A DNA stretch of 64,000 bases from sequence record PV067732.1. One strand, given 5' to 3'. Within the stretch, counting starts at the first letter, position 1; each line of letters begins with the position of its first letter. A model generated the notes under the pieces. It did no database searches, had not been told where the DNA came from, and saw only the letters and a program-made list of their open reading frames with translations. Below, piece after piece: positions 23,655-59,680 of the stretch. This DNA is from Acinetobacter phage vB_AbaS-Bhz15. The position numbers were made by a program, and so were the translations under genes.

Positions 23655-23782
23655 ATTCGTAAAGCACACACATGCTTTACGAATTTTTTGTGTTATAATG
23701 GTTCTACCGGTTCACCGCTCTAAATTTAGCCGTTCCGTTGGACTAGAATAGCTGCTGCGCAGCCGGCGCTTCGCGCCGAAAT
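23655..23782 (+). repeat. copy A of a ~90-125-bp element: terminator hairpin + extended -10 (TGTGTTATAAT, 23691-23699) + GC-rich structured leader
   Basis: 23691-23728 is identical to the reverse complement of 59608-59645. 23749-23782 (TAGCTGCTGCGCAGCCGGCGCTTCGCGCCGAAAT) is near-identical to the rc of 59555-59588. The central 20 nt are diverged (11/20 matches). Confidence 0.8.
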
Positions 23783-23803
23783 CTGAATATTGTCGAGTAT
23801 GAT

Positions 23804-24118
23804 ATGAATATTGAAAGAGATGTAATAATCACTCCTGAAGGAGAAACATTTATTAATGTGTGGCCATTAAGTGCAATTCATTATAATGGTACTTGTAATG
23901 CTGAACTATCCGCTGAATTTATTCATAAAGCATTGAAATTTAAAGATGGTGAAGATATAATTTCATTTATAAATGATTTTGTTACTAATGGATTGAATAG
24001 TATTATTGGCTTGCCAAATACTCCTTCAACTATATATGATATTATGAATATTTTTGAAATGGCTTCTCGTGAGTGTGAAGCTAGATTTCCTGAATTTAGA
24101 CTGGTGTTAAATAAATGA
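23804..24118 (+). CDS. hypothetical protein (insertion)
   Basis: ORF after the structured GC-rich leader (repeat copy A). Confidence 0.4.
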   Translation: MNIERDVIITPEGETFINVWPLSAIHYNGTCNAELSAEFIHKALKFKDGEDIISFINDFVTNGLNSIIGLPNTPSTIYDIMNIFEMASRECEARFPEFRLVLNK

Positions 24119-24432
24119 GAGTATATAAATCCATTGAAGAGTTTGATGAAATTCAAGGTTGTCAAACAACATTATTTACTATAGGCGAAATTGATGAAAA
24201 GTTCCACCTTTCATGGATGCCTAATGTCCTTGAAGCCATCACATTGCCTCGCTATTCAGGATATTTTAATACATTTGACATGTGCCGTAAAAATGTAGAA
24301 ACTGTGCTCAATGCACGCTGCTCCAGCCAATCAGATATTAATACAGTCATACAGTTAATGAATGAATCTGTTCGCAAAGAATTGGAAATAAATCGTTTAT
24401 TATTTCAATGTTTTAGGGAGATAGGCCTATGA
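24115..24432 (+). CDS. hypothetical protein (insertion)
   Basis: ORF; start overlaps the upstream stop (ATGA). Confidence 0.4.
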   Translation: MRVYKSIEEFDEIQGCQTTLFTIGEIDEKFHLSWMPNVLEAITLPRYSGYFNTFDMCRKNVETVLNARCSSQSDINTVIQLMNESVRKELEINRLLFQCFREIGL

Positions 24433-24626
24433 ATATTTTTAGTCAAATTCGTATTGCTAATGAGAATGCAGAAAATTTTTCTGAAACTGCTGCATTATGG
24501 TATCGGGTTGTTGTAGGTGTAGGTATATGCATTCCATTGTTGTTTATTGTTGGGTTCATTACCGGTGCATTGATGTTCAAGAATCCTCTAGCTGCAGGTT
24601 CTGAGCTTGTCAACGCAATGTTCTAA
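24429..24626 (+). CDS. small membrane protein (insertion)
   Basis: Hydrophobic core VVGVGICIPLLFIVGFITGALMF. Confidence 0.35.
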   Translation: MNIFSQIRIANENAENFSETAALWYRVVVGVGICIPLLFIVGFITGALMFKNPLAAGSELVNAMF

Positions 24627-24663
24627 TTAGTGTTACAACTTAGTTACCACTAAGCTTATATCA

Positions 24664-24691
24664 GGGATATGATAAAATGTTATCATATCCC
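24664..24691 (+). promoter_or_regulatory. perfect 12-bp-stem hairpin about 35 nt upstream of the 43B start codon
   Basis: GGGATATGATAA-AATG-TTATCATATCCC. Confidence 0.5.
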
Positions 24692-24725
24692 ATTTGAGTC
24701 AATAAACCCTATCTTTGGAGATTAT

Positions 24726-25898
24726 ATGAATCTTGATTTTAGTCGAGACTTCACCGAAAGTGAAATTGAATACCTCAAATCTCTTTCACAAGAAGAACTC
24801 AATATATTCGAAACACAATGTGAAAATTACATCACATTATGTGATACAAATCAAATTAACCGAAAGCTATTAATTAACAGTTTATATGGCGCACTCGGTA
24901 ACATCTATTTTAGATTTTACGATCTTAGAAATGCTGAAGCTATTACAATCTTTGGGCAAATGGTTCTTCAATGGACTGAACGAAAGATTAATGCATACTT
25001 AAACGAACTATGTGGAACTACAGATCATCCATATGTAATTTACGGTGACACAGATTCTCTTTACATTGAATTGAGTCCATTAATCGAAAAAGTTGGCATC
25101 GATAAATTTTCATCAACTGAAAAGCTTGTTGACTTTTTAGATGCAGTAGCTTCGAAGAAAATCGAACCAGTTATTAATGATGGGTTTAAAGAGATGTGTG
25201 AATATCTCAACAACTATGAACAATTGATGTTTATGGATCGTGAAGCTATTGCATGCCCACCACTTGGTTCTAATGGCATTGGCGGATTCTGGCGTGCCAA
25301 GAAACGATATGCACTTAATGTCTATGACATGGAAGGTACACGTTTCAAAGAGCCATACTTAAAAATCATGGGCATGGAAACTCAACAATCATCAACGCCT
25401 AAAGCGGTCAAAGATGCATTGTTAGAAAGTATTCGTATTATGCTCCAAGAAGGTGAAAAACCATTGCAAGAATATTTCAAGAAATTTGAAAACGAATTCA
25501 GAAATCTTGATTATAAAGTAATTGCTGGTGTTCGTTCTGCAAATAACATTGCAAAATATGATGTGAATGGATTCCCGGGTCTTAAATGCCCAAGTCATGT
25601 CCGTGGTGTTCTTACATACCGACGTGCAATTAAGAAATACGATAACTTGCCAGATATCTCAGAAGGCGAAAAGGTAATGATCTTGCCTCTTAAACCAGGA
25701 AATCCATTTGGTGACAAGTGTATTGCATGGCCATCAGGTAATGAATTGCCAAAAGAAATTCGTGCAGATGTTCTGAAGCATATGGATGTCATGGACTTAT
25801 TTGGCAAAACATACAAAAAACCTCTTGAAGGTATGTGTGAATCTGCAGGTATGCAAGCTGAAAAACGTTCGTCATTGATGGATATGTTTGATTTTTAA
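24726..25898 (+). CDS. 43: DNA polymerase gp43, C-terminal segment (43B: palm/thumb)
   Basis: MNLDFSRDF...INRKLLINSLYGALGNIYFRFYDLRNAEAIT...YGDTDSLY...KKRYALNV...KCIAWPSG...DMFDF is collinear with T4 gp43 from ~residue 485 to the C-terminus. Own ATG with GGAGA SD. Confidence 0.9.
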   Translation: MNLDFSRDFTESEIEYLKSLSQEELNIFETQCENYITLCDTNQINRKLLINSLYGALGNIYFRFYDLRNAEAITIFGQMVLQWTERKINAYLNELCGTTDHPYVIYGDTDSLYIELSPLIEKVGIDKFSSTEKLVDFLDAVASKKIEPVINDGFKEMCEYLNNYEQLMFMDREAIACPPLGSNGIGGFWRAKKRYALNVYDMEGTRFKEPYLKIMGMETQQSSTPKAVKDALLESIRIMLQEGEKPLQEYFKKFENEFRNLDYKVIAGVRSANNIAKYDVNGFPGLKCPSHVRGVLTYRRAIKKYDNLPDISEGEKVMILPLKPGNPFGDKCIAWPSGNELPKEIRADVLKHMDVMDLFGKTYKKPLEGMCESAGMQAEKRSSLMDMFDF

Positions 25899-25902
25899 TT
25901 AT

Positions 25903-25920
25903 TACGGCCTTCGGGCCTTG
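25903..25920 (+). terminator. GC hairpin after 43B (weak terminator; no T-run)
   Basis: GGCCTTCGGGCC. Confidence 0.3.
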
Positions 25921-25929
25921 GAGTATGAT

Positions 25930-58338: not shown

Positions 58339-58344
58339 ACCAAA

Positions 58345-58563
58345 ATGAAAGCATTTAAACCTGAACGAATTATACTTGCAATTATTGCAGCACTAATTTC
58401 GTTATTTGGAGCATTTGGTGTTTTATCAATTGCTCATAAAATTTACACCACAATAGGCGCTCAATTTCCTGCAGATACTGCATTTGCAATTTACTGCATA
58501 AGCGCCTTTGTACTTAGTTGGATTGTTACACGTATTTTTGAAGATTATAAAGGTGATGATTGA
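58345..58563 (+). CDS. small membrane protein
   Basis: Two TM segments. Confidence 0.35.
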   Translation: MKAFKPERIILAIIAALISLFGAFGVLSIAHKIYTTIGAQFPADTAFAIYCISAFVLSWIVTRIFEDYKGDD

Positions 58564-58660
58564 CATGCATTTTTAAAGCTTTTTTTAATTTTATTTATAT
58601 TCTTTGATGTAAAGCACAGATTAGTAATTGATCTATTAATAAATATTTACGGAGACGATT

Positions 58661-58852
58661 ATGTCACTAACATTAACTCAAGAGCAAGTAGATTTCATCG
58701 CAGATAGTATTGGAAATGCAAGAAGTTTGATGGATGCGGTCCATGCATATGACTCGGAAGAGTACCATGCACTAGGTATTGCAAACAATATTCTTGATGG
58801 CTTTTCAGTTCAAGAGGCTAAAGAAGTCTATAAGGAACAATACAATGACTAA
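58661..58852 (+). CDS. hypothetical small protein
   Basis: ORF. Confidence 0.35.
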   Translation: MSLTLTQEQVDFIADSIGNARSLMDAVHAYDSEEYHALGIANNILDGFSVQEAKEVYKEQYND

Positions 58853-59030
58853 ACAAAAAGGTAAAGTTACAGATAACTTTAAGAAAAACCCTAAAGCAAC
58901 ACTAAGTTTTGCTGCTATTGCAATTGCAGGCTTAGCTGCAGTAGTTGGCGTTTTAACTGGATCTGTTGAACCGGATCAAGCAATGGCATTAGTAACCAAA
59001 TTACTTAATGCATTAATGCTAGGTGTTTGA
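58845..59030 (+). CDS. small membrane protein
   Basis: ATG 58845; one TM (SFAAIAIAGLAAVVGVL). Confidence 0.3.
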   Translation: MTKQKGKVTDNFKKNPKATLSFAAIAIAGLAAVVGVLTGSVEPDQAMALVTKLLNALMLGV

Positions 59031-59048
59031 TAGTAACCCGAGGTAATC

Positions 59049-59492
59049 ATGATTAAACAATATGTAAATTACGATTTGCTCGATGCATTTGAGCATAATG
59101 ACTTTGATGCAATAGTACATGGCTGCAACTGTTTTCATACGATGGGTGCAGGTATTGCTGGTGCTATTGCAAAAAGATTTCCTGTAGCTGTCGAAGCAGA
59201 CAAGAAAACCGAATATGGTGATTGGAGCAAGCTCGGCGATGTGAGCATCGCCACAACTGTAAATGGTGACATTATTAATGCGTATACACAATATCGCCCT
59301 GGTAAATGTCCAACACATCAATTATATGAAAATATACGTGATGCATTTACAGTGATTAACAGCAAATATGCCGGCAAATCTTTAGGAATTCCTAAAATCG
59401 GAGCAGGTATTGCAGGTGGAAATTGGCAAGAAATTGCTGAGATCATCAATGACGTGACACCAGATGTCAAAATTTATGTATTGTACATATAA
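59049..59492 (+). CDS. macro-domain protein (ADP-ribose binding/hydrolase fold)
   Basis: AIVHGCNCFHTMGAGIAGAIAKRFP and IGAGIAGG are the two glycine-rich macro-domain motifs. Confidence 0.7.
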   Translation: MIKQYVNYDLLDAFEHNDFDAIVHGCNCFHTMGAGIAGAIAKRFPVAVEADKKTEYGDWSKLGDVSIATTVNGDIINAYTQYRPGKCPTHQLYENIRDAFTVINSKYAGKSLGIPKIGAGIAGGNWQEIAEIINDVTPDVKIYVLYI

Positions 59493-59493
59493 T

Positions 59494-59523
59494 AAAAGGA
59501 GCCATTTGGCTCCTTTTATTTTC
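59494..59523. terminator. bidirectional hairpin terminator after the macro-domain gene
   Basis: AAAGGAGCCATTTGGCTCCTTT flanked by T-runs on the + strand and A-runs upstream. Confidence 0.6.
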
Positions 59524-59554
59524 TCTTCTCTCAAAATACATCAAACAAAACTAA

Positions 59555-59680
59555 TTTCGGCGCGAAGCGCCGGCTGCGCAGCAGCTATACTTCTCCGACC
59601 AAATAGATAAATTTAGAGCGGTGAACCGGTAGAACCATTATAACATACAAATTTCGTAAAGCAAGTGGCTTATGCAAAAT
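59555..59680 (-). repeat. copy B (inverted) of the element at 23655-23782: extended -10 promoter firing leftward + GC-rich structured segment + degenerate upstream hairpin
   Basis: rc of 59608-59645 is TGTTATAATGGTTCTACCGGTTCACCGCTCTAAATTTA, identical to 23691-23728. rc of 59555-59588 is TAGCTGCTGCGCAGCCGGCGCTTCGCGCCGAAAT. Confidence 0.8.

Follow-up and report, generated by a model that had tools for sequence, protein, structure and literature searches.

Bacteriophage T4 has five active replication origins (oriA, oriC, oriE, oriF, oriG), which are spread round its map and share no motif (PMC3016281). Transcription diverges close to three of them, oriE, oriF, and oriG. Each of oriF and oriG spans about 100 bp and combines a MotA-dependent promoter with an A+T-rich unwinding element, and the transcript acts as the R-loop primer; R-loop formation needs no specific sequence (PMC3016281). 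The MotA box of T4 has the consensus (a/t)3TGCTTtA and is positioned 12±1 bp from the -10 element (PMC2988021). T4-type phages also carry promoter-stem-loop cassettes (PeSLs and PmSLs), in which an early or a Mot-box promoter comes directly after a terminator stem-loop. PeSLs occur in dozens of copies, cluster in variable regions, and are linked to gene gain and loss (Arbiol 2010; Comeau 2014, PMC4122927). Here, a promoter-led repeat element was analyzed in a 64,000-nt stretch of Acinetobacter phage vB_AbaS-Bhz15 (PV067732.1), which is called the window below and carries two inverted copies of the element, A and B. The two copies belong to a five-member promoter-plus-leader family, which was previously unremarked and occurs in a group of phage-therapy phages. 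The five units are tentatively read as replication origins.

Five units of one family in each genome

The source of the window is a T4-like Acinetobacter baumannii phage (Straboviridae, Twarogvirinae, Hadassahvirus). AB-Navy71 was 99.7% identical to the window over the 1.3-kb segment tested, and AbTZA1 was collinear with the window. A 100-nt query from copy A gave 259 matches in 51 related phage records, with 5 or 6 matches per record. Four lineages were analyzed in full: AbTZA1, KARL-1 (Lazarusvirus), AB1I1M-1 (genus not given in the record), and ZZ1 (Zedzedvirus). Exactly five sites per genome were found by profile search in these lineages when duplicates at record ends were excluded. The initial annotation had described the element as present twice, which holds for the 64-kb window; the other three copies lie outside it. 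Conservation in related phages had been proposed as a check on the element, and a five-copy family was present in every relative. The reading as a fortuitous fragment was effectively refuted by this result.

Further relatives were searched for in IMG/VR, which returned AbTZA1 only, and in JGI metagenome scans, which gave no further relatives and yielded nothing or unrelated promoters. Host mimicry was considered and rejected. The 19-nt core pattern had 3 matches among 185,579 bacterial and archaeal genomes, all in unrelated metagenome-assembled genomes, and 0 in Acinetobacter. The core strings of the element were not found in any relevant paper in the literature search, and the element is unmentioned in the genome papers of KARL-1, DLP1/2, ZZ1, and the AB-Navy phages.

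The two window copies formed the longest inverted repeat in the window in the repeat search (114 nt, 89% complementary). The 20-nt string GGTTCACCGCTCTAAATTTA and the 25-nt string GCTGCGCAGCCGGCGCTTCGCGCCG each occurred only twice in the window, even with three mismatches, and the expected number was 0.00–0.01 (100 shuffles). Chance does not explain the 114-nt inverted repeat. The repeat search and the shuffles thus agreed with the initial annotation on two GC-rich inverted copies, and the diverged middle segment that it had described between the shared blocks was present.

The five sites were named A43, Bsrd, C34, D25, and E2-3. A43 (window copy A) lay in the insertion that splits gene 43; in ZZ1, the fifth unit was at 60.4 kb instead. 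Bsrd (window copy B) was flanked by the macro-domain gene and srd/dda, and C34 by tail-fibre gene 34 and rnh; D25 lay directly after genes 26-25, and E2-3 between genes 2 and 3. A43, C34, and D25 pointed in the same direction as the early genes, and Bsrd and E2-3 were antisense to their neighbours. This orientation pattern was identical in all four lineages. The two antisense units had their own terminator 100–150 nt downstream. The three units without a terminator ran into unrelated genes: gene 23804, rnh, and a uvsY.-2 homologue.

The gaps between units were 36.2, 29.7, 31.9, 38.3, and 32.1 kb in AbTZA1; 32.4, 39.0, 32.0, 29.8, and 33.3 kb in KARL-1; 31.9, 34.9, 31.3, 39.5, and 30.8 kb in AB1I1M-1; and 42.9, 18.9, 38.6, 31.7, and 34.6 kb in ZZ1. 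For five random points on a circle, the probability of a smallest gap this large was 5e-5 to 2e-4 in AbTZA1, KARL-1, and AB1I1M-1. A43 and Bsrd divided the 98-kb early block into thirds.

Each unit consists of a middle-type promoter, about 55 nt of conserved non-coding initial transcript, a tail, and a terminator or the next gene. A terminator hairpin was often present upstream, not in all copies, and the stem-loop itself was not conserved between copies. As the -30 motif, the AbTZA1 and KARL-1 copies and most of those of ZZ1 had TGCTTTA; the AB1I1M-1 copies had TGCTGT(A)C. The spacing between this motif and the -10 element (TGnTATAAT) was 13–14 bp in both window copies and most others. The C34 copies of AbTZA1 and KARL-1 had an early-type GTTTACA -35 element instead of the Mot-box-like motif. 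The nonamer TGT TATAAT was kept in nearly all copies of three lineages, and a few copies had TGG. The start region TG(T/G)TATAAT GGTTCTAC was shared with the many ordinary early promoters of the phage (families D1–D5). A MotA homologue is encoded by these phages. We infer the class and the activity of the promoter from these elements.

The conserved part began at the transcription start, and identity was at background, about 0.5, both upstream of the -30 box and from about +115 onwards. The 5' part of the initial transcript was pyrimidine-rich and contained a short tandem repeat, which took the form GGTTCTACC GGTTCACC in AbTZA1 and KARL-1, CTACCCCCTACCCTTCC in AB1I1M-1, and (CCCCCTA)2-3 in ZZ1. 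Apart from a one-base C/CC indel, ACCGGTTCACCGCTCTAA was invariant in all AbTZA1 and KARL-1 copies. The best-kept block across all four lineages was a box rich in purines, CGG(G)A(R)AGA(T)ATAGG(R). Two types of tail were found. Two adjacent GC hairpins followed in A43, Bsrd, and the ZZ1 60.4-kb copies; the remaining copies continued straight into an AT-rich tract, in which repeats of the type TTAGATGTA recur with a period of 9 nt. GATGT was about 10-fold enriched downstream of the copies (17 seen, 1.7 expected).

A coding reading of the core was rejected. Its open reading frame (ORF) was shifted between copies by the C/CC indel, and its ATG lay within the -10 element. The 9-nt repeats downstream of the core could be read as two-codon mini-ORFs, for example AUGAUAUGA, AUGAUAUAG, AUGAUUUAG, and AUGUAUUAG. 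The purine box, which is Shine-Dalgarno-like, was followed by a conserved AUGUAU and tandem two-codon mini-ORFs in 8 of the 10 AbTZA1 and KARL-1 copies, compared with 12–16% of controls. The mini-ORFs were not kept in the AB1I1M-1 or ZZ1 copies. As read from the sequence, this arrangement hints at translation-related behaviour.

The five copies undergo concerted evolution. The five cores within AbTZA1, KARL-1, or AB1I1M-1 were 81–89% mutually identical. Same-site orthologues of AbTZA1 and AB1I1M-1 had 61% identity, and the flanks were at the background of about 50%. The changes AAATTTAT to AATTATAT and GGTTCACCGCTCT to CCCCTACCCTTCC were common to all five paralogues of a genome. Since these between-lineage changes were shared by all five paralogues, a common trans-acting partner is suggested. 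Copies A and B were identical in KARL-1 and differed over 20 nt in the window phage, which shows that conversion is ongoing. In PhT2, the element was 100% identical to the window, and the flank was 78% identical. The ZZ1 paralogues were down to 57% identity and still kept the purine box and the hairpins, which speaks for selection on each copy and not conversion alone.

The RNA structure of the unit was investigated. Rfam gave 0 matches at the gathering threshold in the whole window, and only chance-level matches at E<=10 around copy A. RNAalifold found 0 conserved pairs in 14 distinct cores from the four lineages, and single-sequence folds of the core were mutually inconsistent. A hand-picked helix in the core (YYCUA / UAGRR) was not counted; its register shifted between lineages. 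Five versions of the GC module with unrelated sequences, those of the window phage, AB1I1M-1, and ZZ1 among them, all folded as two hairpins of the same shape. The hairpin pairs were GCTGC/GCAGC with CGGCGC/GCGCCG, GCAG/CUGC with UCGAG/CUCGA, GAGGC/GCCUC with CGUCC/GGACG, and GGGGC/GCCCC with CGUCC/GGACG. These modules were compared fold by fold, the lineage sequences being too unrelated for MAFFT alignment or column-wise covariation. Since the two-hairpin fold recurred in unrelated sequences, the hairpin module appears to be selected for shape, and the core appears to be conserved as sequence and not as fold. Conservation of structure, which the initial annotation had named as a check, stood for the GC two-hairpin shape and failed for the core. 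Its proposal of a structured leader was not supported in a strong form: the GC module alone was structured.

Comparison with the replication origins of T4

The five units are read as replication origins, that is, as origin-type primer transcription units like oriF and oriG of T4. We give this reading a probability of roughly 0.37. The promoter of the unit would fire after infection, and the purine-rich part of the nascent RNA would stay hybridized to the template as an R-loop. The R-loop RNA would then prime leading-strand synthesis, and the hairpins or the AT-rich tract on the displaced strand may help to load the helicase-primase. Both R-loop formation and any role in replication are inferred here.

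The unit is similar to oriF and oriG in consisting of about 100 bp with a putative MotA-type middle promoter and the first tens of transcribed bases. The cumulative GC skew was at a minimum at C34, D25, and E2-3, from which late and early transcription run apart, similar to the positions of oriE, oriF, and oriG. D25 was at the exact site of oriF, between gene 25 and uvsY, and had the same direction; the gene after D25 encodes a UvsY.-2 homologue (DUF2685). C34 was the unit nearest to oriG, which lies 2.1 kb inside gene 34 in antisense orientation; the two were about 2 kb apart and had the same direction. Downstream of many of the C34, D25, and E2-3 copies, there was a 40-bp tract more readily melted than 94–100% of random windows or other promoter leaders.

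The stability of the RNA:DNA hybrid was calculated with nearest-neighbour parameters. In every copy, the best 20-nt window of hybrid-minus-duplex stability ranked under the median for 141 other leaders with an extended -10 element; in 21 of the 22 copies, it ranked no higher than the 16th percentile. Relative to these control leaders, the purine box is predicted to form an RNA:DNA hybrid that exceeds the DNA duplex in stability. The ZZ1 copies were extreme in RNA:DNA hybrid stability, with G clusters in the RNA.

Several results weigh against an origin function. The unit nearest to oriE, which lies inside gene 5 in antisense orientation, was E2-3, about 3 kb away and opposite in direction to the oriE primer RNA. 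The unit nearest to oriA (at gene 56) was Bsrd, 5–11 kb away and also in the opposite direction. T4 has no origin in gene 43, where A43 is located. The spacing was less even in ZZ1, with a smallest gap of 18.9 kb (P ~0.035), and the even spacing of AbTZA1, KARL-1, and AB1I1M-1 is essentially one observation because these three share synteny. All five units had a conserved core of about 55 nt, whereas the T4 origins share no motif. Such a core is not predicted by the T4 model, since the T4 origins are motif-free and the R-loop is sequence-independent. The window copies had no unusually meltable tract within 160 nt, and 36–44% of random 40-bp windows melted at least as easily. They carried GC hairpins where oriF and oriG have the A+T-rich unwinding element. 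With GC hairpins and no obvious unwinding element, the window copies are the members furthest from the T4 definition of an origin. In its 5' third, the RNA was pyrimidine-rich, which gives weak RNA:DNA hybrids. The Mot-box spacing was 13–14 bp, compared with 12±1 bp in T4 and 12–13 bp at the other candidate middle promoters of these phage genomes. A sequence link to the leaders of oriF and oriG (GAATAGAG, AGATAGAG, purine-box-like) was rejected as chance, with P ~0.1 for a 6-mer in both leaders and ~0.12 for an 8-mer.

The oriF and oriG leaders of T4 (115,321 and 152,947 regions) contain (G/A)(A/G)ATAGAG about 30–40 nt after the -10 element, as in the purine box; this is within chance (P ~0.1). 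A site given in the ZZ1 genome paper (PMC4177764), where a 114-bp repeat may be linked to the element family, lies 1.7 kb from the ZZ1 gene 2/3 copy (79.3 kb).

If the units are origins, the shared core would imply a dedicated trans-acting recognition factor or a specific hybrid-forming sequence. T4-like Acinetobacter phages with sequence-defined origins are possible, with the odds against them. They would be the first T4-type phages whose origins all share a recognizable motif, and would provide a handle on the open question of what turns a transcript into an origin R-loop. If the module marks origins, this question becomes directly testable, as the same 55-nt core can be mutated, swapped between lineages, and moved.

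Features of the window and of the records

The positions of the features in the window are listed in Table 1.

Table 1. Positions of the element copies, their context, and other repeats in the window
Feature	Position	Strand	Description
Inverted repeat, copy A arm	23669..23782	+	repeat search
Inverted repeat, copy B arm	59554..59667	-	repeat search
Copy A upstream intrinsic terminator	23655..23690	+	12-bp stem ATTCGTAAAGCA / TGCTTTACGAAT (hairpin 23655-23684), then T-run; Mot-box-like motif within descending arm; terminator scan, sequence
Copy A MotA-box-like -30 element	23673..23679	+	TGCTTTA, 14 bp upstream of TATAAT
Copy A extended -10	23691..23699	+	TGT TATAAT; predicted start ~23706
Copy A conserved non-coding initial transcribed region	23706..23749	+	contains ACCGGTTCACCGCTCTAA
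Copy A-specific variant hairpin	23725..23747	+	replaces purine box
Copy A GC module	23751..23782	+	GCTGC(TGC)GCAGC 23751-23763, CGGCGC(TTC)GCGCCG 23764-23778, then AAAT
Copy A AT-rich tail	23783..23807	+	two-codon mini-ORF ATGATATGA at 23799-23807, overlapping start codon of gene 23804-24118
Split DNA polymerase gene 43 (context of copy A)	21441..25898	+	43A 21441-22949 (502 aa), 43B 24669-25898 (409 aa)
Copy B MotA-box-like element	59657..59663	-	TGCTTTA, 14 bp upstream of -10; hairpin upstream degenerate
Copy B extended -10	59637..59645	-	TGT TATAAT; predicted start ~59630
Copy B conserved initial transcribed region	59585..59630	-	pyrimidine-rich 5' part ACCGGTTCACCGCTCTAAATTTATCTATTT; purine box GGTCGGAGAAGTATAG 59600-59585
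Copy B GC two-hairpin module	59554..59585	-	identical to copy A module, then AAAT
Terminator-like part of copy B GC module	59572-59558		terminator scan
Copy B AT-rich tail	59521..59553	-	conserved GATGTAT 59542-59536
Bidirectional intrinsic terminator	59491..59520	.	ends macro-domain gene (+) and copy B transcript (-)
Copy B predicted transcript	~59630 to ~59490	-	~140 nt
Context of copy B	59049..60840	+	macro-domain gene 59049-59492 and Srd/HNH-like gene 59872-60840, opposite strand to copy B
Early-promoter family	22952-62967		at least 18 copies, e.g. 41934-41973, 52637-52683, 55406-55487
D7 leader motif	50206-50232, 53764-53790, 54205-54231, 55448-55474, 55998-56024, 61555-61581		six early-gene leaders
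Repeated segments (families D6, D8)	33535-34108, 34716-35286		71–72% identity, ~1.18 kb spacing

The anatomy given in the initial annotation was consistent with these features. An extended -10 element was present in each copy, with a 12-bp terminator hairpin before copy A and a degenerate counterpart before copy B, and the self-complementary GC body folded as adjacent hairpins. Both copies were promoter-led and non-coding. Copy A was the leader of gene 23804, into which it runs without a terminator of its own, and copy B was an orphan unit ending at the bidirectional terminator. Copy B and the gene 2/3 copies are each predicted to give a discrete non-coding RNA. The proposal of an antisense pair was not upheld. 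Each copy would be transcribed in the same sense from its own promoter, so the copy A and B RNAs would be alike and not complementary. Antisense RNA from read-through of the macro-domain gene was also not supported, as the terminator would be met first.

The insert in gene 43 was 1.7 kb long and contained five small ORFs and copy A. Pfam and PHROGs gave no function to these ORFs. The split was common to AbTZA1, KARL-1, AB1I1M-1, and ZZ1. The AB-Navy71 record labels it "intron". Nothing intron-like was found at the split: there was no Rfam intron match, and the two parts had separate start and stop codons.

Downstream of the C34 copy, at about 90 nt, there was a second, canonical-looking middle promoter (TGCTTCA, 12–13 bp, -10; AbTZA1 65,994 and AB1I1M-1 168,324). 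From these motifs, the rnh operon seems to be read from two promoters in tandem that differ in class.

The apparent sixth copies were record ends, where the record overlaps itself, and are likely artefacts. Three independent GenBank records start within an element copy: NC_049445 (AbTZA1) at position 1, NC_049441 (KARL-1) at positions 7-97, and OQ627712 (AB1I1M-1) at positions 1-97. A partial duplicate copy was present across the record ends of KARL-1 (7-97 and 166,443-166,559) and AB1I1M-1 (1-97 and 168,325-168,437). In fragmented assemblies of related phages (PP798959-PP799042), several contigs had a promoter piece near the contig end. The KARL-1 assembly was made by SPAdes with 2x150 reads. 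The element repeat probably breaks or mis-closes short-read assemblies.

Other repeats were also present in the window. The early-promoter family had the form GTTTAC(T/A)..N..TG(n)TATAAT(A/G)GT(T/C)CTATCA, and its spacer and initial transcribed bases often formed an inverted repeat around the -10 element (e.g., GATAGGACTATTGTTATAATAGTCCTATC). By their sequence, these promoters look like the PeSL cassettes of other T4-type phages. The leader motif TCAAATCTAATAA(C/T)GGATTTGAAA(A)TTGAGG (family D7) folded into a small hairpin immediately upstream of the ribosome-binding site and was unrelated to the element. The two repeated segments of families D6 and D8 are probably tandem paralogous genes.

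Alternative explanations and known systems

The units may be sibling small RNAs or regulatory 5' leaders, in which the single-stranded conserved 5' end would act on RNA, as a seed or as a segment for protein binding. We judge this explanation less likely than not, but a close rival of the origin reading. The RNAs would pair with phage or host mRNAs, titrate an RNA-binding protein, or control downstream translation. The srd and gene 2/3 orphans would be free RNAs of about 130–150 nt, and the other three units would put the 5' segment on mRNAs or release it by processing. That the conserved part starts at the transcription start and is wholly transcribed is consistent with such RNAs. The shape of copy B is classic for them: it has a promoter of its own, its 5' end is conserved, and stable hairpins, a stretch rich in A and U, and an intrinsic terminator follow. 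Between lineages, the sequence of the two-hairpin module turns over and its shape persists, and the fact that the 5' end changed in concert in the five copies fits target co-evolution. The C-rich 5' ends of AB1I1M-1 and ZZ1 (CCCCCUA repeats) resemble the anti-Shine-Dalgarno seeds of some small RNAs. The purine box, AUGUAU, and mini-ORFs of AbTZA1 and KARL-1 also count in favour of this explanation, but the mini-ORFs are not kept in the other two lineages. The seed is wholly different between phages of the same host species, and the core matched no host sequence in the 19-nt pattern scan. The core has no conserved secondary structure and no Rfam match. Since the three copies without a terminator enter unrelated genes, there is no common cis target. 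The near-even spacing and the fixed syntenic sites are left unexplained by sibling RNAs. If the units are such RNAs, a virulent phage would have an unusual system of regulatory RNA in multiple copies.

It is improbable that the units are PeSL/PmSL promoter-terminator cassettes and nothing more. They would then be strong middle promoters with a stem-loop, with the first 50–100 transcribed bases held alike by the frequent gene conversion of a highly recombinogenic phage and no function beyond starting and insulating transcription. The upstream half does have a terminator stem-loop followed by a TGCTT Mot-box promoter, as published (PMC4122927). Copy A showed this arrangement with its 12-bp stem, T-run, and overlapping Mot-box-like motif; in copy B, the hairpin was degenerate. 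In the window, 18 other PeSL-like early promoters share TATAAT(A/G)GT(T/C)CTATCA with the element (families D1–D5). Gene conversion is evident from copies A and B, which are identical in KARL-1 and not in the window phage, and the fifth copy is at a different locus in ZZ1. However, two of the five promoters drive nothing: they are antisense to their neighbours, with a terminator after about 140 nt, and four lineages retain this arrangement. The ZZ1 paralogues are not homogenized, yet the purine box and hairpin module persist, and in PhT2 the element is far better conserved than its flank. PeSLs number dozens, cluster in variable regions, and mark indels, whereas the five units are at evenly spaced sites, four of them fixed; many copies in hyperplastic regions, with homology limited to the stem-loop and promoter, were not found. 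The initial annotation had suggested a mobile promoter cassette. Its promoter half, with hairpin and Mot box, does resemble the published cassettes, but the element is not recently mobile: 55–100 nt of the transcript are conserved as well, and four of its five sites are the same in all four lineages. A cis-acting antitermination RNA that modifies RNA polymerase, like lambda nut (boxA and boxB) or HK022 put (two stem-loops), is very improbable. AbTZA1 and KARL-1 copies carry CGCUCUAAAUUUA and, after it, a hairpin, which together resemble lambda boxA (CGCUCUUA), spacer, and boxB. Two adjacent stem-loops come shortly after the promoter in the window copies, and the units often stand directly after a terminator. 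The boxA-like string is absent from AB1I1M-1 (CCCUUCCAAUAUUA) and ZZ1, and the C34, D25, and E2-3 copies of AbTZA1, KARL-1, and AB1I1M-1 have no intact two-hairpin module. The put stem-loops are far larger than the hairpins of the unit, which have stems of 4–6 bp. With antitermination, moreover, the two orphans would read into long antisense RNA with no gene to express. A match to the lambda nut boxA/boxB was rejected, as the boxA-like CGCUCUAAA was found in the AbTZA1 and KARL-1 lineages only, with CCCUUCCAA in AB1I1M-1 and CCCCCUA repeats in ZZ1. The chance is negligible that the element is a fortuitous duplicated promoter fragment that serves mainly as an inverted repeat for flipping the 36-kb segment. 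At 114 bp, the repeat is long enough for T4-type recombination, for which about 50 bp is cited as sufficient in the ZZ1 genome paper (PMC4177764). The five conserved copies in every relative and four lineages are opposed to this explanation, and no isomer with the 36-kb inversion was found among about 30 records in which both flanks could be oriented. As a substrate for homologous recombination, a role that the initial annotation had proposed, the element was thus supported by the gene conversion between copies and not by inversion of the segment.

Several known systems resemble the units in part. Sibling small RNAs such as Qrr1-5 and OmrA/B also have dispersed copies with a shared 5' segment and their own promoters, and the orphan copies have an intrinsic terminator as these RNAs do. 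They differ from the units in that three of the five copies here are mRNA leaders without a terminator, and even spacing is no feature of sibling RNAs. Lambda nut, HK022 put, and lambda bar are likewise promoter-proximal, multi-copy RNA elements. The boxA-like string with a hairpin in two lineages, the two stem-loops of the window copies, and two-codon AUG-AUA-stop mini-ORFs like the lambda bar minigenes are points of likeness, but no feature of these elements persists in every one of the four lineages or of the five copies. The PeSL/PmSL cassettes have the same order of stem-loop and promoter, are repeated, and are substrates of homologous exchange, and copy A lies within an insertion of genes without known relatives. 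The units differ from these cassettes in the extra 55–100 nt of conserved transcribed sequence and in having two members that drive no gene. The replication origins of T4, with which the units are tentatively identified, show the same mix of mRNA leaders and antisense orphan transcripts (oriF/oriG = ori-uvsY/ori-34). The five units round the genome are comparable to the five origins round the ~168 kb of T4.

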